64,000 nucleotides of DNA from Bacillota bacterium (GTDB lineage Bacteria; Bacillota; Clostridia; Ch29), in the NCBI GenBank assembly GCA_040766775.1, contig JAXGPT010000002.1, positions 34,607-98,606 of the forward strand, given 5' to 3'. Within the stretch, counting starts at the first letter, position 1. The number at the start of each line of letters is the position of its first letter. This document shows positions 5,939 to 53,220 of the stretch, in pieces. Below the pieces are notes generated by a model that was given only the letters and a program-made list of their open reading frames with translations, made no database searches and was not told the origin of the DNA. A program made the translations under genes and the position numbers.

Positions 5939-6149
5939 CTCTATAATTCAGGCCGGCACAGATAGCTTAAGCGGAGATGGTATATTATTTAGTTAGGCGT
6001 GAAAGCAGACAAATGAGTAAAGGAGGCTATATCCATGGCAAAGGTAATAAGCGTTCTGTTGTCGTTGATGACTTCTGTACTTAGCTGGCGGCGCCGGCTG
6101 GAGTTGGAAATAAAACCTATTATGCCGGCCTGAATTGGAGTTATGTCAG

Positions 6150-7420
6150 CCTAATGAGAATAAACAATGGACAGACTTCCTGTGAAAGCGTGAAAATTGA
6201 TAATTGGAGCAACTGTTATTATTGCAATAATATTAGGGATATTCTTTTAACGTATGGGGACTGGAAAAAGATATTGGAGAAGTAGTGTTTTTTGTTGTTT
6301 TGGCTACAATAGGCGAGTCATTAAGCATCGCTTTACCTAACCAAATCAGCGTTTCTGTGGTGTTCTCGTACATTTTGTTTGCATTGTAATGCTGTTCAAT
6401 CCTCTGACGGCAGGTTTACTAGTCGGGGGCTGGCCATTTAATGTTTGGTGTATAAGAGAGAAGGAAAATCGGGCAGTCTATTCAATACCCTTTATAAAAC
6501 AGTCTTTAATGTATGCACTGCTTTCGTTTCATCGGTTGTATCCGGTATAGTATACAGCTACCTATATGTGCCCGGGGGATATATAAACCTGGCAAGTGTT
6601 ATACTGCCGATTTCAATAGCATCTCTTGTTTACCTGGCGGTAAATTCTTCCACTGTTGTGCTATTGATTTCAAATCTGTTGAACAAGACCATCAGGTCTA
6701 TTTGGAAACAGAATGTTAATTGCAGGCAAAACTACCTAATAATGTCACCCCTTGGAGTAATACTGGCTATTGCATATCAAAACTACGGGTACTTTGGAAT
6801 ACTTTTATTTTTGGCCCGCTGCTTATGGCAAGATACCTTTAAACTGTATATCGAATTGAAGAGCAGCTACTCCGAAAACCATACAGGCCCTGTCCAGTGG
6901 ACACACTGAGGCCAAGGACCCGGTGACCAGCGGTCATGCCGAGCTGCAAGCTTATATCTTCGACAGTTATAGCCTGGGGGATGGGACTTTCGGAAGCCAG
7001 GATAGACAATATAATGTATGCGGGAATTCTCCACGATATCGGTAAAATAGGTATATCCGACAATGTTTTGCAAAAACCGCAGGCTTACCGGATGAATATG
7101 ATAAGATAAAGGAGCATTCCGCCATTGGTGCAGATATATTAAGGGACATTGACTTCTTAAGGGATGCTTCCAGAATAATCCGGCATCACCATGAGCGCTA
7201 TGACGGTAAAGGATATCCTGACGGTATAGGCGGAGAAGGGGTGCTCATTGAATCATATATCCTTGGAGGGGCCGATGCCTTTGATGCCATGACCAACGAC
7301 AGGCCGTACAGAAAAGCGTTGACAGCGGAAGGTCTTCCGGGATGATTATGAACAGGCGGGAAAGCAGTTCCATCCCCGGGTGGCGGATACTTTTGTTAAA
7401 CTATTTGATAAGGGTTGTTG
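6150..7420 (+). pseudogene. Membrane-anchored HD-GYP phosphodiesterase, multiply frameshifted
   Basis: TM-rich N-terminal pieces (6150-6909) then HD-GYP motifs in shifting frames: LHDIGKIGI, HHERYDGKGYPDG, GADAFDAMTNDRPYRKA. Confidence 0.6.
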
Positions 7421-38857: not shown

Positions 38858-39856
38858 ATGCCACAGCCTTATGACAGCGGGCTTAGTGAACAACACCGCA
38901 GGCAGGATATTGACGTGGAAAAATTTATTGAGGACCAGGTTAGGACCATACGGGAGACGGTCGGGGACAAAAGGGCCCTGTGTGCCCTAAGCGGCGGCGT
39001 GGATTCATCGGTGGCGGCGGTGCTGGTGCACAAGGCTATTGGCGACCGGCTAAGCTGCATTTTTGTAAACCACGGTCTTCTTAGGAAGGACGAAGAGGCA
39101 GAGGTGGAAAGGGTATTCGGGGACATGTTCAACATGAACCTAGTAACGGTGGATGCAGCCGACAGGTTTTTGAGCCGGCTTGAGGGTGTAACCGACCCGG
39201 AAGCAAAGAGAAAGATAATCGGCGAGGAATTCATAAGGGTGTTCGAGGAAGAGGCCGACAAGCTGGGCAGGGTGGACTTCCTGGTACAGGGCACCATATA
39301 CCCCGATGTGGTTGAAAGCGGCAGCAAGGGAGCGACTGTAATAAAGAGCCACCACAACGTGGGTGGGCTGCCGGAGAACATGACCCTTTCACTCATAGAG
39401 CCCCTAAGGTCGCTTTACAAGTACCAGGTAAGGGAGGTAGGCTTAGGCCTTGGGCTTCCGGAGCATCAAGTATGGCGCCAGCCCTTCCCCGGGCCCGGCC
39501 TTGCCGTAAGGACAATAGGGAAGGTCACCAGGGAAAGGCTCCAGCTGCTTAAGGAGGCGGATGCGATAGTCAGGGAGGAAATAGCGAAGGCCGGCCTTGA
39601 AAGGGACATATGGCAGTACTTCGCAGTGCTTTTGGACATAAAATCCGTCGGTGTAAAAAAGGACGAGCGCACCTATGACCACGTGGTGGCAATAAGGGCC
39701 GTGAACAGTTCCGATGGAATGACGGCGGACTGGGTGAAGATACCCCATGATGTACTGGGAAGGATTTCGTCAAGGATCGTAAACAATGTAAAGGGCATCA
39801 ACAGGGTTGTTTATGATATTACGACCAAACCGCCGGGAACCATAGAGTGGGAATAG
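38858..39856 (+). CDS. guaA: GMP synthase ATP-pyrophosphatase domain only (GuaA subunit-B-like); no GATase domain
   Basis: Starts at the PP-loop region ([10 protein letters not shown] at residues ~44-53) and runs to the canonical C-terminus ..TIEWE. Confidence 0.8.
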
Positions 39857-39957
39857 AAAGCAAAAGAACCCGGAAACCTGGGCAAATAAAGGGTTATCGC
39901 CCACAGGGATAGCAAATGAACCGGGGGGTAACCGGTACGGGGCAGCAAGGAAATCAA

Positions 39958-39995
39958 AAAGCCAGTCACGCTTAAATTGTGTGACTGGCTTTTTA
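39958..39995. terminator. Bidirectional terminator between guaA and the SLH-protein gene
   Basis: agccagtcac...gtgactggct hairpin with T-tracts on both strands. Confidence 0.7.
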
Positions 39996-40025
39996 ATTCT
40001 AATGGTCTGCTTTAATTGTTACGGA

Positions 40026-43000
40026 TTACTTACCCAGCAGGTTATACAGCACCTGTGCCATTTCGGCACGGGTGGTTGTGCCCTGTGGTGTGAGCTTCCC
40101 ATCGCTGCCGCCCAAGGTGCCGGCCTCGACCAGCAGCTTCATGGCACCTTTTGCCCAGGGAGCGATGGCATCCGAGTCGGCGAAGTCGGCAAGAGTCTTG
40201 CCGGAACTGCCTTCGGGTAACTGCCCGATCACCTTGAGGGCATTATGCAGCAGGGTGAACATCTCCTGGCGGGTGATTTCCTTCTCAGGAGCGAACAGGT
40301 TGTTGCCTATGCCTGCGGATATGCCAAGCCTCTTGGCTGCGGCCAGGTAGCCGGTGTACCAGGTGCTGCCCGCATCGGAGAAGTTATCCTTCGGATTAGC
40401 GTCGGGAGCCATGCCGTACGCCTTCATCAGCATGACGATGAACTGCCCCCTGGTCAGCTTTGCTTCCGGGCTGAAATTGCCGCTCCCCGTACCGGTGGTG
40501 ATCTCCCTTGCGGCGATAAAGGAAACCGCTCTTTCATACCACGCATCCGCCGCTACATCGCTGAAGCTTACCTGCTTGTAGCTTACGGCATAGTAACTGA
40601 AGTGTGTGGTGGTGAAGGTCACGTTTCCGGTAGCCGGGTCATAGTGCCCGTTGGGTATGGTAACAACATTACCGGAACCGTCGATGTACCATACGACAAT
40701 GCTTTCAGGATTGGCAAGCTCCTCACCGTGGGGGTATAAGGTATGCTCACAGTAACGGGCGCGTCCGGATTGTTCCATTCGGTCTGCCTGCCGTCAATGG
40801 ACAGCGTGAGCTGAATGAGGGGCTTATCGCCTATGGCGGACTTCACATCGTCGGGCAGATTGTCTTTATCCCCATGCGGTGCTGATCTCTGCCTGGCTTC
40901 CGTTTATACCCGAAATGCCGGTCAGGATATTGGACGGAACAATGATAGTGCCCTGAGCCGTTTCGACAGTCAGGCCTTCCTGGCCCGCGGTGGCAAGATT
41001 CTGAACCGGTATTCCGACAGAATAAGTGTCCACATCGGGGATCGAAGGTATTGTAATAACAGTCCCTTCTGATGTGAGTTTATGAGAGCCTATGTCTATA
41101 TGGGCGGTTCCGCTTTTTGTGTCAACGGTCACCGGAAGAGTTGCCGCAGGGCCGCTTCCTGCCTGAATAACGGCGTTAAAGGCCGGAGTAGTCGGCGTTG
41201 ACTTAGTAGTGCTTCCGCCACCGCCACCGCCGCCACCGCCGCTATATGTCCATTTAGCGTAGACGGTCATCGCGGCGTTCACAGGCGTTTCAGAGGTAAA
41301 CTGGGTGCCGGTGCCGTTTTCTCCCGTGAACCAGCCCCCGAAGGTATAATTGTTTCTCGCGGGATTAGCCGGCCAGGCAGCGTTTCCTATACTCTCGCCC
41401 GCATTGACGGTTTTGGTGGCATAAACTGAGCCGTTGCTTTCAAAAGTGACGGTATAGGTTGCGACTGGTACGGCATCCACTGTGAAGCTTGCCGTAAAGG
41501 TCTGCGCTGTTATATTGCCGCCGCCGGACACCGTGACCGTCGCCGTATATGTCCCGGCCGCCAGGCCCATTTTCGGAACCACGGTGAAAGTGTCGCTGCC
41601 GCCCACGGCTATGCTGTCGACGGCGGTATTGGACAGGGTGTAGCTGTTGGGGTCAGTTCCGCCCAGGGTACAAGTCAGGTCTCCCGTCGCCTGATTGCCT
41701 ACGTTGGTGATTGTTACGGTCAGCGGAGTAACGGAATCGTAGCCGGCGGTCTTGCCGGTGAAGGTGTGTATGCCGGTCTTATCCAGATCTATACCGTAGG
41801 TCGCCGGGTTTACCGTAAAGGACAGGCCGGCTGTCAGGGAAATGCCATTGTCGCCTGTGATGGTGAGCGTGTCTGTGTAGGTCCCGGCCGCAAGTCCCGT
41901 TTTGGGCCGGACGCTCACTGTAGCCGTACCGCCTGCGTTGAGGCTACTGGCAGATAAAGCCGCACTGATCTCAAAGTTCTCTCCGGATAGAACAGCCGAA
42001 AGGCCGGTGATCGTCCCCGTTCCGGTATTAGTGATGGTAAACTCCTGTGCGGCCTGCTGGGAGTAGTTCACCACCGCCGCCGTGAATGTTTTGCTTGCCG
42101 GGTCGATGTTGGCAATATATGTAGTGTCCGGGATATCCTCCCAGATGGCATACAGCGTCAGGTTATTTGCGGGCATGGCCACTGTCGTGTTGGCGGAATA
42201 AGCTGTCCCGGTACCGTCCGCCGCCGTGTTCCACTCCTTGAACTGCTTGCCGGGCGGTGGAGTGAAGGTGTTCCACGGCGCTGTGGTAAAGGTTTCAGCT
42301 GCATCCAGATATTCCTTGGCAGGGGCGGTACCGGTTCCACCGTTGGCGTCATAAGTAAGGCTGTAAACCACCTCTACCGGAATAGTTAGTTTAAGAAAAG
42401 CATCTTCGCCTGATTTTCTGCCGGATAAAACAAGAACATAGTCTCCGGCTGCTGTAGGGGCTATGGGGAAAGTCGTTGAGTTCTCCTTGCTGGCGTTTAA
42501 TTCGGCAGAAGTATTTTCAGTGTCAACTGTGTAATCAAATTCACTTGTGTCATATCCCATCACTCTTACATATTTCGTTTCCCCCACAGCCAATTTTTGA
42601 GGTCCGGGCAGGCTGTCAAAACAGCTTGAACCCTTATAAAACAAAGGCGCATGAGCGGATATTACCAGGTCTTCCGTTGAGGTGATTTCGTTATTGGTCG
42701 GACCCTCTTGGATATATATGCCGTAATTCTCGCTTTCATTTGTCGTGTTCATTATGGTGCCCCCGGTCAGCGTCAGAGCGCCGCCGTTAATAAAGATGCT
42801 GCCGTAAGAATTGCCGGTGATGGTTCCCCCGCTGACAGTAACCGTACAGCCGCCGGCCACATACAGCCCGTATTCTCCTGATATCGCTACATCTTTGCCG
42901 GAAATGATAATGGCACTACTAGAACCATAAACGCCATACAATGTTCCCATTATTTCAGCATCACCGCTGATCGAGACGCTTTACCGAGTCGATGCTATGA

Positions 43001-44035
43001 CGTTTATGCCGACAGAGCCGCTGAACGTTCCACCGCTGATGGCAGTATCACCGCAACCACCGAGGCCAATTACATCATTGGAGCTTGTAAAAGTACCGCC
43101 GCTGATTTCAACTGTACCTGGTTATTCAGGATGATATTATTAAAAGTTCCTCCGGTAATGGTGACTGTATTGGTATCAGAAATATCGATATAGCCGTTAA
43201 CCGTTCCGCCGCTGATCACAGTTGGGCAAGTATCCAGACTGAGGTTGCCGTTAATCGTTCCGTCGCTGATATCCATGGAACCGACATCTACGGCAACCGG
43301 AAACAGGGCGTTGATTTCCGCATCTCCGTCAATCTTCACATTCCCTTTTTCAACCCTAACTCCATACGTCTGTGCCGCTGTTTCAGGAACGGTGGTTGTA
43401 ATGGTACCACCGCTGACGGTTACTGTGCTTCTGCTGTCTGTTGAATCGTAATGGAAAAGTTTAATGCCGTGTGAATAGCCTGTGATTACTCCGCCGCTGA
43501 CATTCACCGTAACGATGCCCCCATTTGCATAGATGGCCCCTTCAGAAAATTTGTTGTACAGATCCAGGACGGCCCCGCCGTTAATGTTAACCGTGCCGCC
43601 GTCCTCTATATATATCGCGGAATGCCAGTCTTACTCAGAGATTCGATGGTACCGTTCTCAAGGGTAAATATGCCGTTGTCCTTCACTCTTATTGTCTGTT
43701 CTCCGCTGCCCGTTATGGTGAGAGCGCCGTCGACGGTCAGATTGCCGCGCGAGGCAACTATAAGGGAATAACCGGCTGTATCCAGGGTGATGGCATCCCC
43801 CCCGGAGAGGGTAACCGCTCTGCTTACAGTTATGTTTTTAGTTAAGGTAATATCGCCGGTAAGCGTGATGACATCATCAGTACCGCCTAGAGCGGCTTCC
43901 AATCCGGCTTGGTCAGAAACTTCCGCCGCCCGGGCGCTGCCTCCAGCAGAAGAATACAGCCAAGGCCAGGATTGTCCCAGAAAGCAGTTTCAACAATGTT
44001 TTTGCCTGATTATGCCTAATCATTGTTTCACTCAT
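40026..44035 (-). CDS. Large secreted surface protein: signal peptide, parallel beta-helix repeats, Flg_new (Listeria-Bacteroides) repeats, poly-Gly linker, Ig-like region, three C-terminal SLH domains; frameshifted
   Basis: Minus-strand ORFs 43913-44107 (signal), 43606-43902, 43070-43507, 40866-42950, 40026-40778 are contiguous pieces; ...GGTITG../..GGTVNG.. repeats; YSLTYDANGGTG.. and YTVTFESNGSVY.. repeats; G11 tract (41221-41250); SLH x3 at the C-terminus. Confidence 0.7.
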
Positions 44036-44653
44036 TTTTTTCCTCACTTTCTGTTCTTGGTTTTTTCTTTTATGGTTTTTGCTATCGCGCCGTCGCGCAT
44101 CGCACATGCAAATACCGATGGGGTCATAGGGCGTCCGCTCCCGGTAAAACCAGCCGCAACCGCCGCAGCCGCCGGGCGGCGGCTTCCCCGCTGACTTTGG
44201 CTTGCAGTTAGGGCAGCTCTCCTGCTCCGCCGTGGCAAAGGGCCTGCCTTCATCGGTATACTCCGGGTGCTCCCAAAGTCGGGATAGGCCGGATAGCTCT
44301 CGCCAAGCTGCTCGTCGTATTCAAGGTAAACGGGAAACTCCCGGCCTCCCGCCCGGAACACCTTGTATGGTTTCTTTTGCCCGGGGCACATTCACTACGC
44401 TCCTTTCGGGTAAGGAAAACAAAAACCCCTACGATAGTTTTTTTATTTACTATCATAGGGGCAAATGCATGTTTCCGGTAGTGACTTTTTGCCCTCAAAA
44501 AGTCACGTTTTTTTGGCGGATTAGATACTTGTTTCGCTGTTATTTGCAGGGCTATATAGGAAAACTTTACCGAAAAACCGCATACTGGGGCCCTTTTTAG
44601 CATGTATGGCGGCGGCTTAATAGTCGTTTGAACGACTATTTTTTAATCGCGGT

Positions 44654-45130
44654 TTACGCTGCGTTACACATGCCGGCATAAAGCACCGCGCAGGTCGCAA
44701 AAGCGCCCAGCATTGCGGAAAACACGCTTTTAAGCACGATATAGAGGTAAAACGGGACCGAGGTCATACCCAGCAGTGCAAATAACAAAGCCGTCAGAGA
44801 GGATAGAATGAGCGCAGCACCCAGGCCGAGTGATACAATAAGCAGCACGGGGCGGCGGAAAAGCCGCGCCAGCAGGCGTGCCGGAGGTGCCTTTGCAGCG
44901 AGAACGCCCCCGGTTTTGTCTCTGTGCAGGCTTGTTCTGCAGAAGGGCGCGGTGATGGCGAAGGTCAGCAGGCAGGTGATGGTTATATCGATGGTAGTGC
45001 TGACTGCGTCTGCAGGCACGAAATCCGCCTTATGGTAGATAAGGGCCGCGGCCATGCCGCCAATAAAGAAACTGAAGGCGGCGGAGACCGATGCCTGAAT
45101 GCGCAGATAAACGGCAAGCTCCCTGTTCAT
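44654..45130 (-). CDS. Small integral membrane protein (4 TM)
   Basis: 158 aa; GC-rich; overlaps the next gene by 4 nt. Confidence 0.5.
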   Translation of the reverse strand: MNRELAVYLRIQASVSAAFSFFIGGMAAALIYHKADFVPADAVSTTIDITITCLLTFAITAPFCRTSLHRDKTGGVLAAKAPPARLLARLFRRPVLLIVSLGLGAALILSSLTALLFALLGMTSVPFYLYIVLKSVFSAMLGAFATCAVLYAGMCNAA

Positions 45131-46296
45131 GACCCGTCTCCTTTATTCGTCATTAAAACGTACTGCGCAAGCTCATCCCGGCTGGATATATACAGCTTTT
45201 CGTAGATTTCCAGCATGATATTCTTTAGCCTTCCGACGGAAATATTATTCTGCTTTGCGATTTTTGCATAAGGAACGCGGCGCGCCACCAGCTGTGCCAG
45301 ATGTGCTTCCCGCAGGGAAAGAATCAATGTGATGTTATCCTTGGTGAAATGGTTGTGAAAGGTGACCCAATTTTTAACCGTGCGCTTCCACTGCTCTATG
45401 ACGGCATCGAAGCAGGCGGGGAACGCCTCCTCCAGGCACTGCTCCATAAGGCCGCCGAAATCGGAAACAAGTTCCGCAAAGGGTGTGATAAAGCCGTGGG
45501 GCAGGGCAATACCCATGGTTCCCAGCAGCCGGCGCCTGGCCTCATCCTTGCGTCCAAGGCAATGACAGGCAAGAGCGCATACTACCCGCAGATAAAGCTC
45601 CGGGAACGTGATACCCCGCTCCGGGGGGCTAAAGGCCAGCGCTGACTGCGCCACGGCCAGCGCGATTTCATATTTCCCGATGCACATAAAATATTTTGCT
45701 CGCAAATAGAGCATGTACGGCGGTTTCACCTGCGGCGGCAAAGTGCTGAAATCTCCCGCCGACAGCCACCCGGGAACCATGTTCGGGGCGGCCACGCTAA
45801 CAGCGACGCTGGCCAGCGCAAGCTCCGCGATAGCGGAAATGTCACTGCCGCGGCTCGCGTCCAAAAAGCTTTTGAGATAAGCCTCGATCTTTAGATACGC
45901 AGGGTAGTCTCCCAGGCTGATAGCCGCTGCGACTGCTGCCAGGGACGCACGCAGCCTTGCCGCTTCGTCCCCTTCGGTCATATCGTAGCAGCGCATTGTG
46001 CGTGCGAAATCGCCCCGCAGGTAGGCAAGCTCGCCCTCGTATTGAAGCCGCAGCTTTTCCTCCTTCACGGTTTTCAAAACCGCATCAGGGTCATGGGCAG
46101 GCATGGGTAAGGAAGTTGCTTCAATCACACGGGCAAGCTCGGAGGACAGCGATTGTCCCGGCGGCTTTTTCCCTTTGCGCGGATCGGCGGGTTTTTCCGC
46201 GTCGTCAGGAATCATCCACGACCTTCCGTATTTTTTGGCACGGGGTATCCGGTTATCGGATAAAAGCCGCTGCACCTGCCTGAGGATACGCCCCAT
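45127..46296 (-). CDS. Transcriptional regulator with N-terminal excisionase-like HTH and C-terminal LuxR-type HTH
   Basis: N-terminus ..IPRAKKYGRSWMIPDDAE.. (HTH_17-like); C-terminus ..LSLREAHLAQLVARRVPYAKIAKQNNISVGRLKNIMLEIYEKL.. (LuxR/GerE); helical middle. Confidence 0.6.
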   Translation of the reverse strand: MGRILRQVQRLLSDNRIPRAKKYGRSWMIPDDAEKPADPRKGKKPPGQSLSSELARVIEATSLPMPAHDPDAVLKTVKEEKLRLQYEGELAYLRGDFARTMRCYDMTEGDEAARLRASLAAVAAAISLGDYPAYLKIEAYLKSFLDASRGSDISAIAELALASVAVSVAAPNMVPGWLSAGDFSTLPPQVKPPYMLYLRAKYFMCIGKYEIALAVAQSALAFSPPERGITFPELYLRVVCALACHCLGRKDEARRRLLGTMGIALPHGFITPFAELVSDFGGLMEQCLEEAFPACFDAVIEQWKRTVKNWVTFHNHFTKDNITLILSLREAHLAQLVARRVPYAKIAKQNNISVGRLKNIMLEIYEKLYISSRDELAQYVLMTNKGDGS

Positions 46297-46689
46297 TTTT
46301 CGGAAGCCTCTGCAGCCGATATGTATTCCATCCTCAAACGGACCTTTCTATTGGAAAATTATAGATTTATTATAGTCGTTTGAACGGCGTTTTGCAACTG
46401 CATTGGAACAGCTTTTCCATATCGCCTTGTTTTTCCGAGCCTTGCGTACGGCTGTTTAACTTTGGGTGAGCATGTTCCTTCCTGTGGCGTTGCCCGGGCC
46501 GTATAAGGCCAAACAAAAAACAATTTATGGCCGGAAGCTCTCTCCGGGCGGAAGAAATATTGAATCCTGCTATTACATATGCTACACTCATTTTGCGGTG
46601 TTAAACAAACGGCACGGTGTAAATAATATACTAAAGGGATTACTGTTTAAATAACAGGCGGCTATTGAAAGGGACAAAAAGAAAAGGAA

Positions 46690-47937
46690 ATGACAGAAAT
46701 TAAACCAAGGTGGGAGGATGCGGGTATGGATACGGACGGAATCATGGAAGGCTTAATAAAGGAGAATAATTCAAAGATCGTGATGGTGGTGATGGACGGC
46801 CTGGGGGATATCCCCTGCCCGGAGTTTGATAACAAAACGCCGCTGGAGTACGCAAAAACCCCCAACATGGACGCGCTGGCAAGGGAATCGGTATGTGGAA
46901 GGCACATCCCGGTTATGCCGGGAATAACCCCCGGCAGCGGTCCCGGTCACCTGGGCATTTTCGGGTATGACCCCAAAAAAGTCGTGATTGGCAGGGGCGT
47001 GCTGGAGGCGGTGGGGCTTGGGCTGGAACTCAAGCACGGAGACGTTGCCGCCAGGGCGAACTTTGCCACGCTGGATGACAGCGGGCGCATAACCGACCGA
47101 AGGGCGGGAAGGATACCCACTGAGAAGAATAAAGAACTTTGCGGCATACTGGGTGAAATAAGGGAAATAGACGGCGTGGAGATAATAGTCCGGCCGGGCA
47201 AGGGGCACCGGTTTGTGGTAATACTTAGGGGTGACAACCTGAACCCCGCCGTGGACGATACCGACCCGCAGCACGAGGGACATGCCCCCCTTCAGGCAAA
47301 GCCTCAGAAGGAAGAGGCGGCCTTTACAGCGGGCATAATAAACAAGTTTGTTGAAAGGGCTGAGAGGCTTTTACATAACCATCATCCGGCCAACGGGATA
47401 CTGCTTCGGGGCATATCCTCAAGGCCGAAGATTCCCGGGTTTAAGGAGAAATACAAGCTGGAAGCCGCGGCCATTGCTTCCTACCCGATGTACCGGGGCA
47501 TAGCCGACCTTTTGGGAATGACGCTGCTTCCCGCGCCGGATTCGATAGAGGGATTGTTTAAGACCTACCTGGAGTTTCACAACAAGTACGACTTTTTCTT
47601 CATACACGTAAAGGGCACCGACCAGGCGGGGGAAGACGGGGAGTTCCTTACAAAGGTGAACGTTATTGAAAAGGTGGACAGGGCCCTGCCCATACTGCTT
47701 GAAAAGAAGCCCAACGTGCTGGCCATAACCGGCGACCATTCATCGCCCTGCCCTATGCGGTCCCACAGCTGGCACCCGGTGCCGGTGCTTGTGAACTCGC
47801 AGTTCTGCGGCAGCGACGACGCGGTCCGTTTTACCGAGAACCAGTGCAACATCGGTGGCCTTGGCTTCTTTGAAAGCAGGCACCTTATGCCGCTTCTCAT
47901 GGCAAACGCGCTTCGCCTTGACAAGTACGGCGCTTAA
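46690..47937 (+). CDS. apgM: Cofactor-independent phosphoglycerate mutase, archaeal type (ApgM family)
   Basis: ..MVVMDGLGD...HSWHPVPVLV.. motifs; intact. Confidence 0.8.
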   Translation: MTEIKPRWEDAGMDTDGIMEGLIKENNSKIVMVVMDGLGDIPCPEFDNKTPLEYAKTPNMDALARESVCGRHIPVMPGITPGSGPGHLGIFGYDPKKVVIGRGVLEAVGLGLELKHGDVAARANFATLDDSGRITDRRAGRIPTEKNKELCGILGEIREIDGVEIIVRPGKGHRFVVILRGDNLNPAVDDTDPQHEGHAPLQAKPQKEEAAFTAGIINKFVERAERLLHNHHPANGILLRGISSRPKIPGFKEKYKLEAAAIASYPMYRGIADLLGMTLLPAPDSIEGLFKTYLEFHNKYDFFFIHVKGTDQAGEDGEFLTKVNVIEKVDRALPILLEKKPNVLAITGDHSSPCPMRSHSWHPVPVLVNSQFCGSDDAVRFTENQCNIGGLGFFESRHLMPLLMANALRLDKYGA

Positions 47938-50323: not shown

Positions 50324-51039
50324 GGTTCGGAGTGGTGGTTTTCCCGGGTTCCAATTGTGATGTTGACTGCTACCATGCCCTAAGGGACGTTATGGGACAG
50401 GACGCCGAATACATCTGGCATAAGGCCGACAGCCTGGATTCCTTTGACTGCATAGTGCTGCCGGGGGGGTCCACTTACGGCGGCTACCTCCGGAGCGGCG
50501 CCATTGCAAGGTTTTCCCCGGTAATGGAAAGGGTTGTAGAGTTTGCCCTAAGCGGCAAACCGGTTATAGGGATTTCCGACGGGTTTCATGTGCTGACCGA
50601 GGCCGGCCTGCTGCCGGGGGCCATGCTCCGTAACAAGAGCATGAAGTTCATATGTGACAATGTGTATATAAAGGTGGAAAGCTCCGGCACTCCCTTTACA
50701 AACCTATGCAGGGACGGGCAGGTGCTGAAAATGCCTATAGCCCACTGGGACGGGAACTATTACGCGGACAGTGATACGCTGAGGGAAATGGAACAAAACA
50801 AGCAGGTGGTATTCAGGTACTGCAGCCCGAAAGGGCATATAAGCGGCGAATCCAATCCCAACGGCTCACTGCAAAATATTGCCGGTGTCTGCAACCGGGA
50901 AGGGAATGTTTTGGGGATGATGCCTCACCCTGAAAGGTGCGTGGAAGAGATACTTGGCGGCAGGGACGGAATAGTGATTTTCCAATCGATAATCAACTAC
51001 TTGAAGGGAGGCATGGCCGGTGGAAAAGAAACCCTATGA
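50320..51039 (+). CDS. purQ: FGAM synthase glutaminase subunit PurQ (nucleophile motif reads SDGFH, not CNGFQ)
   Basis: VVFPGSNCD.., ..[14 protein letters not shown].., ..MMPHPER.. present. Confidence 0.8.
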
Positions 51040-53220
51040 AAAGGTGGGGCTCACCAGAGAGGAGTACCAAAGAATCCTGGACATACTGGGAAGGGAGCCC
51101 AACGAGCTGGAACTGAACATGTACGGTGTTATGTGGTCGGAGCACTGCAGCTACAAGAACTCAAAGCCGGTTCTTAAAATGTTTCCCACCTCCGGCGAAA
51201 GGGTACTGCAGGGGCCGGGGGAGAATGCGGGCATAGTGGACATCGGCGACGGCCTTGCGGTGGTAATGAAGATTGAAAGCCACAACCACCCATCGGCGGT
51301 GGAGCCTTACCAGGGCGCAGCCACCGGGGTGGGCGGCATTGTAAGGGATATTTTCACAATGGGGGCAAGGCCGGTGGCGCTGCTAGGTTCGCTGCGGTTT
51401 GGCGAACTGGACAATGAAAGGACAAAGTACCTTTTCGAAAAGGTTATAGAGGGTATTGCAGGGTACGGCAACTCATTAGGAATACCCACCGTGGGCGGAG
51501 AGGTGTATTTCAACGACTGTTACCGGGGCAATCCGCTGGTAAACGCCATGGGTGTAGGCCTTATCCGTCACGATGATATAAAGCGTGGTACCGCCGCCGG
51601 GGCGGGGAACGCGGTAATGATTGTAGGGGCTTTTACCGGCAGGGACGGAATAGGGGTGCCAGCTTTGCATCGACGGAATTAAACGAAGAATCCGAGGAAA
51701 AACGTTCGCCGATGCAGGTGGGGGACCCCTTCATGGAAAAGCTTCTGCTGGAGGCGTGCCTTGAGCTGTTTAAAACCGGGTACGTAGTGGGAATGCAGGA
51801 CCTGGGAGCGGCGGGGCTTACGTCGGCCTCCAGCGAGACCGCAAGCCGCGGCGACAGTGGAATTGAAATTGACGTCGCATTGGTACCCAGGAGGGAAACC
51901 GGCATGATACCGGTGGAGGTTATGATTTCGGAATCCCAGGAGCGCATGCTGGTAATAGTGGAAAAGGGAAAGGAACAAGAAGTAACAGACATATTTGAAA
52001 AATGGGGCCTTCACTCGGCGGTTATCGGAAGAGTGACCACTGATGGGATGCTTACCATAAGGGAAAACGGCGAAGTGGTGGGAAGGGTCCCGGCAAAGTC
52101 ATTGGCGGAGGATGCTCCGGTCTATCATAGGGAGTATAAGGAACCGGCTTACTATAAGCAGCTTAAAGACCTGGATATGGAAAGCCTTGAAATGCCGGAC
52201 GACTTTAACGATGTGCTTGTTAGACTATTAAGAAGTCCCAATATCGCCAGCAGGGAATGGGCATACCGCCAGTTCGACCACATGGTGGGGACCTGTACCG
52301 CCGTAGGCCCCGGGTCCGACGCGGCGGTGATAAGGATAAGGGGAACCGAAAAGGCCATAGCCTTAACCACCGACTGCAACAGCAGGTACTGCTACCTTGA
52401 CCCGGGGACGGGCGGCGCCCTTGCGGTGGCGGAGGCTGCCCGGAACCTGGTGTGCAGCGGGGCAAGGCCGCTGGCGGCGACCGACTGCCTGAACTTTGGC
52501 AACCCGGAAAAGCCGGAGGTGTTCTGGCAGTTCCGCCTAGCGGTGTCCGGGATGAGCGAAGCGTGCCGGGCGCTGGATACGCCGATTATAAGTGGCAATG
52601 TAAGTTTCTACAACGAAACGGATACCGACGCGGTGTTCCCCACGCCGGTGGTGGGCATGGTGGGGCTTATAGAGGACACGGCCCATATCACCACCCAGGC
52701 CTTCAAAGACCGGGGGGATGTTATAGTGCTGCTGGGCGAAAACGGCGAAGAGGCCGGGGGCAGCGAGTACCTGAAGGTTATTCACGGCCTGGAGAAGGGC
52801 AGCGTGCCGGTCCTTGACCTTGGGCGGGAAAAGAAAGTGCAGGACTGCTGCCTTGAACTCATAAGGAACGGGCTTGTAAAATCCGCCCATGACTGCAGCG
52901 AGGGCGGTATTGCGGTAGCCCTTGCCGAAAGCTGCATATCCGGGGGCAAAGGGGCCCGGGTGGCCTTTGAAGGCTGCGGCCGCAGCGATTTGCTGCTGTT
53001 CGGTGAAACCCAGTCCAGGATACTGGTCACGGTGGAGGAGGACCGCCTGGAGGACCTTTTGGAAACCGCCGGCCGGCTTGGAGTGTCCGCCGCGGTGCTG
53101 GGACGGGTTGAGGATGAAGGCTTGGAAATATCGGTAGATGGTCAAAAATTGATAGGGCTTTCTGTTAAGGAATTGGAAACCAACTGGCGGGAGGCTTTGC
53201 AATGTATTATGGCAAAGTAG
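51020..53220 (+). CDS. purL: FGAM synthase large subunit PurL (one frameshift near 51655)
   Basis: Two ORFs (51020-51682, 51712-53220) joining at ..GVPAlhrr|[25 protein letters not shown].. Confidence 0.85.

Follow-up and report, generated by a model that had tools for sequence, protein, structure and literature searches.

A repeated 15-mer in a Clostridia surface-protein cassette is probably the duplicated operator-promoter of an uncharacterized HTH_17-TPR-LuxR regulator

The DNA analyzed here is a stretch of 64,000 nucleotides (nt), hereafter called the window, from a Bacillota bacterium of the class Clostridia (GTDB lineage Bacteria; Bacillota; Clostridia; Ch29; GenBank assembly GCA_040766775.1, contig JAXGPT010000002.1, positions 34,607 to 98,606 of the forward strand). 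Between guaA and apgM it carries an accessory cassette with genes for a regulator, a small membrane protein (TM gene), a Cys-rich protein and a giant surface protein (Table 1). A sequence of 15 nt, ATAGTCGTTTGAACG, occurs in this cassette as two exact copies on the plus strand. An initial annotation, made from the letters alone, had recognized both copies but placed them at 44612-44626 and 46367-46381, which is 8 and 5 nt too low. It also stated correctly that the copies bracket the membrane-protein and regulator genes, since the open reading frames (ORFs) 44654-45130 and 45127-46296, both on the minus strand, lie between them. From these and other features it suggested that the segment, described as a GC-rich island, may be a horizontally acquired regulatory cassette. 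Our comparative analysis agrees that the repeat is real and non-random, but it points to a different origin, wherein the repeat is likely to be the duplicated operator-promoter of an uncharacterized HTH_17-TPR-LuxR regulator rather than an insertion scar.

Table 1. Positions in the window of the cassette and of the genes and predicted control elements that it contains.
Feature	Position	Strand	Details
Accessory cassette between guaA and apgM	39857-46689		giant SLH gene, Cys-rich gene, leader junction, P2, TM gene, regulator gene, P1
Giant surface-protein gene	40026-44030	-	signal peptide, beta-helix, Flg_new/CARDB repeats, three SLH domains; at least four reading-frame segments
Cys-rich protein gene, ~112 amino acids (aa)	44040-44391	-	invariant C60, C76, C79, C95; 3' end approximate
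H2, predicted intrinsic terminator on the gene strand	44416-44461	-	12-bp hairpin 44461-44426; T-run 44425-44416
H1, near-invariant 26-nt palindrome	44481-44506	-	GTGACTTTTT-GAGGGC-AAAAAGTCAC (N6 center across loci)
P2, apparent decayed duplicate of P1	44617-44646	-	-35-like TTAAAA 44646-44641; -10-like TATTAA 44622-44617
Putative operator copy 1, in P2	44636-44623	-	perfect palindrome GTCGTTCAAACGAC, extended 44640-44619; 15-mer at 44620-44634
TM gene, 158-aa protein	44654-45130	-	four hydrophobic segments; start overlaps regulator stop (ATGA)
Regulator gene	45127-46331	-	HTH_17 winged helix, residues 1-45; MalT-domain-III-like TPR, ~60-330; divergent LuxR/GerE-like helix-turn-helix, ~337-392
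P1, predicted regulator promoter	46369-46397	-	-35 TTGCAA 46397-46392; 17-nt spacer; -10 TATAAT 46374-46369
Putative operator copy 2, in P1 spacer	46388-46375	-	palindrome GCCGTTCAAACGAC; 15-mer at 46372-46386

When up to two mismatches are allowed, the 15-mer has three matches in the window, whereas 0.11 are expected, and none of 100 shuffled sequences reached three. The core of the repeat is a 14-bp palindrome, GTCGYT-N2-AACGAC. At the copy upstream of the regulator gene, this palindrome fills the 17-nt spacer of a predicted sigma70-type promoter, P1, which has 10 of 12 matches in a promoter scan. The same layout, TTGnAA-N3-palindrome-TATAAT, is found 51-60 nt before the regulator start codon in 27 loci that represent different genera and different genomic neighborhoods (individual loci are denoted by L numbers). 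In the 1.84 Mb of DNA scanned, 53 occurrences of the palindrome lie near a regulator homologue and four lie elsewhere.

A second copy of the palindrome, located after the regulator gene or the TM gene, is found in the closest clade, where 15 loci have it and the window is one of them. Here the surrounding sequence, P2, has the appearance of a degraded P1. TTGAAA or TTGCAA is still in place in L009, L010, L013, L014 and L016, and P2 in L010, L013 and L014 also retains the first transcribed bases of P1, AGCYGTCATTTCAC. Within the P2 copies, the palindrome is better preserved than the -35 and -10 hexamers. By this comparison the ‘direct repeat’ is an old duplication of a putative promoter-operator. 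The spacer between P2 and H1, about 130 nt in the window, was also considered as a possible structured small RNA, but this candidate was rejected because spacer lengths range between 95 and 183 nt and the sequence is poorly conserved.

Copy 1 of the repeat resides in a 9+9 palindrome followed by six T residues on the plus strand, and a terminator scan lists plus-strand positions 44619-44640 with the tail TTTTTT. The perfect hairpin and T-tract described in the initial annotation are therefore present as sequence, and one could propose that copy 1 is an intrinsic terminator only, and that its identity with copy 2 is incidental. This is very unlikely. All neighboring genes are on the minus strand, where AAGCCG follows the hairpin, and there is no co-oriented gene for a plus-strand terminator to serve. 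Moreover, the six T residues are the A-rich -35 region read on the opposite strand, and no T-tract is found in L005, L006 and L022. Chance identity would also have to overcome the low expectation given above for the repeat.

The most informative evidence for the function of the palindrome comes from the 32 loci that lack GTCGYT-N2-AACGAC. Most of these carry another palindrome at the same promoter position, which is ATTTGCA-N3-TGCAAAT in 13 loci, CTTCC-N5-GGAAG in six and GTCGC-N4-GCGAC in five, with CGCAATTGCG, ATGCGT-N4-ACGCAT and AGCCGA-N4-TCGGCT as further versions. Regulators were aligned by operator class, with the classes assigned by eye and some of them small (4-6 loci), and the identity in the N-terminal recognition helix (residues 14-26) was 0.82 within classes versus 0.34 between them. 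The corresponding values are 0.63 and 0.60 for the TPR region (60-330), 0.79 and 0.76 for the C-terminal helix-turn-helix (HTH) domain (336-390), and 0.87 and 0.86 for the recognition helix of the latter (362-378). Depending on the class, the N-terminal helix reads SLRQVQRLL, GTRIVTLYC or SGRSI.YHL. Thus, changes in the predicted operator are matched by changes in the N-terminal excisionase-like head alone, and they do not follow the phylogeny of the remaining protein. Because the class of palindrome tracks the N-terminal recognition helix, and not the TPR or the C-terminal HTH, we consider the 15-mer to be, most likely, an operator recognized by the N-terminal head. Taken as a whole, the locus is probably best explained by a 14-bp palindromic operator for this head that is present in P1 and again in its duplicate, P2.

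We also considered whether the palindrome might be the operator of another binder, such as the Cys-rich, Zn-type protein, the C-terminal LuxR-like HTH of the same regulator, or a host factor. Dimers of the LuxR/NarL type are known to bind inverted repeats separated by 2 bp, as exemplified by the 7-2-7 sites of NarL, and the Cys-rich protein is co-encoded and has four invariant Cys residues. However, the operator class changes while the C-terminal HTH is invariant, and co-variation is seen with the N-terminal HTH only. The Cys-rich gene is missing from about one third of the loci, some of which have the P1 palindrome (L024, L030, L050), and the palindrome is found almost exclusively beside this regulator. 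A different binder is consequently improbable in our view.

If recognition by the N-terminal head is correct, the classes constitute a ready-made set of orthogonal operator/HTH pairs, predicted from natural co-variation and comprising four or more specificity classes. Separately, we observed that two cassettes are present per genome in the JASBZB, CALDNN and CAYXKD assemblies (L028/L048, L031/L038 and L033/L076). The paired copies L028/L048 and L031/L038 differ in P1 operator class, an arrangement that fits insulation between paralogous systems.

The proposal that the repeats mark the ends of an insertion was evaluated with metagenome relatives found through ApgM, for which the guaA-apgM interval was compared. 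L081, whose ApgM is 97% identical, aligns to positions 39313-39855 and 46735-47271 of the window with 120 nt between. Empty guaA-apgM sites, with 45-125 nt separating the two genes, are seen in L081 and also in L086-L089 (86% ApgM identity). L082 carries the full cassette at 90% nucleotide identity over window positions 39926-47120. In L008, L079, L080 and L084, the cassette extends from the regulator through the TM gene and the leader as far as codon 41 of the Cys-rich gene, where an ORF for a 443-aa membrane protein follows in place of the giant gene. Unrelated cargo lies between guaA and apgM in L085 and L092. These alignments indicate that the accessory unit is the whole 6.9-kb cassette, from ~39857 to ~46690. 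Both 15-mers are internal to this unit because the relatives with empty sites break at ~39857 and at 46690-46735, and so the two copies do not serve as insertion boundaries. The suggestion of a horizontally acquired cassette holds to the extent that the region is accessory, but not for island limits at the 15-mers or for an anomaly in composition.

With regard to composition, positions 44040-46400 had been estimated at ~60% GC against ~50% for the neighboring DNA. Calculated directly, this segment has 54.2% GC and the flanking 5-kb regions have 53.2% and 52.3%, and 18% of window segments of equal size are at least as GC-rich. GC content at third codon positions (GC3) is 0.64-0.65 for the regulator and TM genes and 0.62-0.68 for housekeeping genes (0.65-0.68 for guaB, apgM, icd and purQ), and therefore neither measure deviates from the host. 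For the cassette in its entirety, no compositional signal of acquisition and no flanking direct repeats were seen, and none of its four genes has an integrase, recombinase or transposase domain.

It is thus hardly credible that the 15-mers are attachment (att) sites or a target-site duplication produced by insertion of a GC-rich regulator/TM island of 1.75-2.4 kb, even though two exact 15-nt direct repeats, an accessory region and an excisionase-type HTH are what such an event might leave behind. In addition to the lack of a GC or GC3 deviation, the absence of a recombinase gene and the distant indel boundaries, the repeat is conserved in sequence and in promoter position across genera and insertion contexts, P2 exists at loci where the TM gene is absent, and no haplotype among ~75 related loci lacks exactly the segment between the repeats. 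The more general lesson for annotation is that a short direct repeat on either side of genes need not be the scar of an insertion and can instead stem from promoter duplication.

Several other observations were made on the distribution of the cassette. The guaA-apgM interval appears to be a hot spot for variation among close relatives. The cargo in L085 and L092 includes a secreted protein and an ORF of ~487 aa whose N-terminus contains a membrane region and whose C-terminal tail is LuxR-like. In L083 the P1 palindrome (L083:2688) and the regulator gene are separated by two additional ORFs (188 and 192 aa, at L083:1360-2700), possibly a broken transposase, and this arrangement would uncouple the regulator from its promoter. 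A Christensenellaceae genome (L005/L022) likewise has the cassette after guaA, in the opposite orientation. A contig from a viral collection, IMGVR_UViG_3300009117_000043 (L159, L160), has two H1-H2 junctions, one with the regulator and the Cys-rich gene and a second with a Cys-rich fragment beside an SLH gene, and it may be misclassified or prophage-adjacent. A scan of viral contigs for H1 yielded only this one contig with the same cassette, and a phage origin was dismissed for want of any sign of it.

The regulator ORF as assembled (45127-46296) does not include the true start codon, which is an ATG at 46331. The ORF and this ATG are in different frames because the window lacks one nucleotide, between 46284 and 46285, that three homologous loci have. 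Once corrected, the protein is 401 aa long, and homologues of this same length match it over the full sequence with identities as high as 90%. Its residues 3-42 match HTH_17 (PF12728) with 28.7 bits, above the gathering score of 27, which confirms the excisionase-type HTH of the initial annotation; the LuxR/GerE-type HTH reported with it is a weak resemblance below the Pfam cut-off. Among 48 relatives, HTH_17 is detected in 48, TPR_MalT in 40 (best E value 2.9e-7), GerE in 25 (counted at E<=0.1; best 9.5e-4) and Sigma70_r4 in 13. A confident AlphaFold2 (AF2) model, with a predicted local distance difference test (pLDDT) value of 88.8, consists of an N-terminal beta-helix-helix-wing, a long helical repeat and four C-terminal helices. 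The top Foldseek match for this model is domain III of MalT (1hz4; E 1.7e-3, 292 aligned columns), followed by STAND-TPR and Rap proteins. A profile of the regulator family aligns its C-terminal 55 residues with the whole DNA-binding domain of NarL and VraR, at weak E values of 0.1-0.2.

The combination of domains had been called odd, but it typifies a large uncharacterized family. A word-indexed search returned 588 proteins at E<=1e-3, and an exhaustive search returned 174 clusters (50% identity) at E<=1e-30, most of them full length. No function has been described for any member, although some are labeled ‘CsgD family regulator’ by the Joint Genome Institute, and a literature search for this regulator or its combination of domains found nothing relevant. 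A plasmid tblastn label had suggested BcrR as the identity of the N-terminal head, but this candidate was discarded because the match is to a separate 65-aa HTH ORF upstream of bcrR.

We think it likely that the regulator is a one-component protein of the MalT TPR-LuxR type that has gained a MerR/Xis-like autoregulatory head. It shares with MalT and LAL regulators a TPR-like putative sensor followed by a C-terminal LuxR-like HTH. Its putative target promoter is also like those that depend on MalT in having no -35 element, with a candidate site that ends beside that position. Unlike these proteins, the window regulator has only 401 aa and carries an extra N-terminal winged HTH with its own predicted operator. 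No NTPase family is detected in it at E<=10, and we have not filed it as a LAL because it lacks the N-terminal STAND/AAA NTPase module. The beta-helix-helix-wing fold and a palindromic operator between -35 and -10 resemble MerR, but the P1 spacer in the window and in the aligned loci has the optimal 17 nt rather than the over-long 19-20 nt needed for MerR-type activation, and the protein has no coiled-coil dimerization or effector domain. Unlike true excisionases, its HTH_17 domain is not partnered with a recombinase. RRNPP regulators (Rap, NprR, PlcR, PrgX) are similarly one-component proteins with an N-terminal HTH followed by a TPR superhelix, and Rap is among the fold matches; however, the HTH here is HTH_17 and not XRE, and a second HTH is present at the C-terminus. 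We recognized no secreted pro-peptide gene of the RRNPP type next to the regulator, where the neighbors encode the 158-aa membrane protein and the 112-aa Cys-rich protein, although no systematic search for small ORFs was made. Finally, the C-terminal 55 residues may resemble the NarL/GerE group, with a weak alignment to NarL and VraR and four helices predicted by AF2. The differences are the sub-threshold score, the lack of a receiver domain and a family-specific recognition helix, ISVGRLKNIMLEIY.

The second conserved part of the cassette is a near-invariant junction that always lies ahead of the Cys-rich gene, where H1 and H2 are conserved in 45-49 loci. H1 is found in 49 of ~60 loci, with a 5' arm that is 99% identical across 46 of them, and in the scanned DNA 63 occurrences are within 1.2 kb of a regulator homologue and one is elsewhere. 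For H2, which has the consensus CCCTATGATAG-N9-CTATCATAGGG followed by a T-run, the numbers are 49 near a homologue and one elsewhere. Wherever both elements could be located, H2 begins 46 nt after H1, and it lies just ahead of the ribosome-binding site of the Cys-rich gene. Its 5' arm contains a -10-like hexamer, TATGAT (44457-44452), located 23 nt after H1, and this spacing recurs in 54 of 58 instances. In compact loci H1-H2 directly follows the regulator stop codon, and in the window it follows P2. L033, L036 and L053 are divergent loci, with the regulator on one strand and, on the other, the palindrome, H1, H2 and the structural genes in their usual order. From this we assign the junction to the structural-gene unit.

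We read H1-H2 as a terminator that would insulate the regulator transcript and that overlaps a putative activator-dependent promoter. The alternative, wherein the junction is purely an RNA leader or attenuator, with transcription from P1 or P2 and a factor or ligand that controls read-through of H2, is a real possibility, albeit not the one we favor. Five H2 base pairs show compensatory changes, a result reached by none of 500 shuffles, and H2 has a T-run, 96.6% paired cells versus 38-57% in slid registers, and 28 G·U cells versus seven A·C cells. H1 has eight G·U and no A·C cells, the leader of the window folds strongly (-46.2 kcal/mol, z = -6.6), and the divergent loci have a promoter with the palindrome ahead of H1-H2. 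An attenuator alone does not readily account for other features. The T, A, T and final T of TATGAT are invariant although the bases paired with them in the 3' arm of H2 vary, the 23-nt spacing is rigid, and L020, L036 and L050 retain TAnnnT 23 nt after H1 without a terminator. Furthermore, an Rfam scan of positions 43900-46700 gave nothing credible, with a best score of 23.7 bits against a gathering threshold of 50 (RF03532 scored 19.5 against 100). The attenuator model concerns the junction only, and it is compatible with the 15-mer being an operator.

A terminator in the leader of a large surface-protein gene is reminiscent of the cwpV switch of Clostridioides difficile, which subjects a cell-wall protein gene to leader-terminator control. 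The present arrangement lacks both an invertible element and a recombinase. Its terminator shares sequence with a -10-like hexamer, and an invariant palindrome lies upstream.

Returning to an operator for the N-terminal head, the following mechanism can be proposed. A dimer of the regulator would most likely bind GTCGYT-N2-AACGAC through its N-terminal excisionase/MerR-like winged HTH. Binding would probably repress P1, and thereby establish autoregulation, because the site is located between the -35 and -10 elements of an optimally spaced promoter. The central MalT-domain-III-like TPR may act as the sensor. By exclusion, the C-terminal LuxR-like HTH is a candidate binder of H1, since both are invariant. 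Transcripts from the regulator gene would stop at H2, and the Cys-rich and giant surface proteins would be expressed from an H1-dependent promoter starting inside the H2 loop, by regulated read-through, or by both.

A more ambitious version of this hypothesis is that the regulator is a two-headed factor. Its fast-evolving N-terminal head would act on a clade-specific palindrome in its own promoter, with which it is exchanged, whereas its invariant C-terminal head would fire the H1 promoter, whose -10 lies in the terminator of the regulator transcript. The cassette would then be a portable and undescribed switch for interchangeable giant surface or S-layer proteins in anaerobic Clostridia. We put this forward as a speculation that is rather doubtful in its full form. 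If true, it would provide self-recognition and insulation between paralogous cassettes, and it would be a rare natural case in which one polypeptide has two DNA-binding domains apparently serving two separate operators. Syntrophic and digester Clostridia have many giant SLH and adhesin-like proteins, and we know of no account of how these are switched on. In this respect the locus provides a control module that is compact, conserved and amenable to testing, composed of an operator/HTH pair, a second invariant site and a terminator-promoter junction.

Besides the assignment of operator classes by eye, a number of observations weigh against the proposed operator and mechanism. First, every assignment is comparative, and it is on this basis that we infer binding of the regulator to its sites, the sign of regulation, the pairing of the C-terminal HTH with H1 and promoter activity at TATGAT. 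Second, the P2 hexamers of the window are weak (TTAAAA-18-TATTAA), and P2 may be an operator without promoter activity. Third, L001, L010, L011, L052 and L057 have a class-A N-terminal domain and no P1 palindrome, indicating that autoregulation at P1 is not universal. Fourth, L019 (regulator 6001-7203) combines a class-B P1 and a class-B head with a degenerate class-A-like palindrome at the P2 position, 496 nt after the regulator stop codon, which suggests that the latter is a relic and that P1 and the head were exchanged as a module. Fifth, the match to GerE/LuxR (PF00196) at residues 337-391 reaches 13.3 bits, below the cut-off of 23.5 (E=0.066). Finally, judged by its G·U and A·C cells, H1 is no less compatible with an RNA hairpin than with a DNA site bound by protein.

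The initial annotation had also suggested that the regulator may serve the SLH surface-protein gene, and this link is supported by the gene order regulator, (TM), Cys-rich protein and giant surface protein, which recurs in ~60 Clostridia loci with differing neighborhoods (purC/ABC/AMP-ligase, guaBA and others). Syntrophomonas zehnderi OL-4, Anaerotignum neopropionicum DSM 3847, Lutispora saccharofermentans and Anaerotaenia torta are isolates in which the cassette is present. Contigs with homologues encode the regulator, a membrane protein of 158-160 aa, a Cys-rich protein of ~110 aa and a giant protein of ~1800 aa, and a giant ORF of ~700-1900 aa follows in most loci with enough flanking sequence. 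Because the giant proteins differ in domain content across loci (SLH, Flg_new, Big_9, He_PIG, SbsC_C, Ig), the regulator and Cys-rich genes can be viewed as the constant parts and the surface protein as the variable part. The Cys-rich gene follows the regulator in 41 of the ~60 loci. Its product has no relative in Pfam, NCBIfam or the PDB, and the AF2 model is poor (pLDDT 53). The TM gene is present in only ~10 of the ~60 loci, with remnants in three; searches of family libraries placed its product in no known family, and all 86 homologues are annotated as ‘hypothetical’.

Positions 44040-44391, which had been taken for the promoter region of the SLH gene, are in fact occupied by the Cys-rich gene. 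This gene is frameshifted after ...YPAYPDF, and the assembled frame runs into the start of the SLH gene. The frameshifts of the window, in purL, the regulator gene (46284/46285), the Cys-rich gene (~44270) and the SLH gene (40026-44030), are probably indel errors of an unpolished assembly rather than signs of pseudogenes. At 44030-44110, the C-terminal frame of the Cys-rich gene continues without a stop codon into the SLH start and signal peptide (ORF 43913-44107). The Cys-rich and giant-protein genes of L006 overlap by ATGA, and the continuation in the window may be translational coupling or another indel error. Outside the cassette, the housekeeping gene purL is in two pieces, 51020-51682 and 51712-53220, and its reading frame breaks at a G-run (~51640-51712).

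At 39955-40005, between the converging guaA and SLH genes, a perfect long hairpin, AAAAAGCCAGTCACGCTTAAATTGTGTGACTGGCTTTTT, is located between A- and T-runs and resembles a bidirectional terminator. The guaA ORF itself (38858-39856) encodes 332 aa, begins at the ATP-pyrophosphatase domain and starts 16 nt after guaB. The glutamine-amidotransferase domain that is present in the 510-aa GuaA of L005 is missing in the window and in relatives with 95% identity, and hence GMP synthase may be split in these organisms, or its amidotransferase subunit may be encoded elsewhere.

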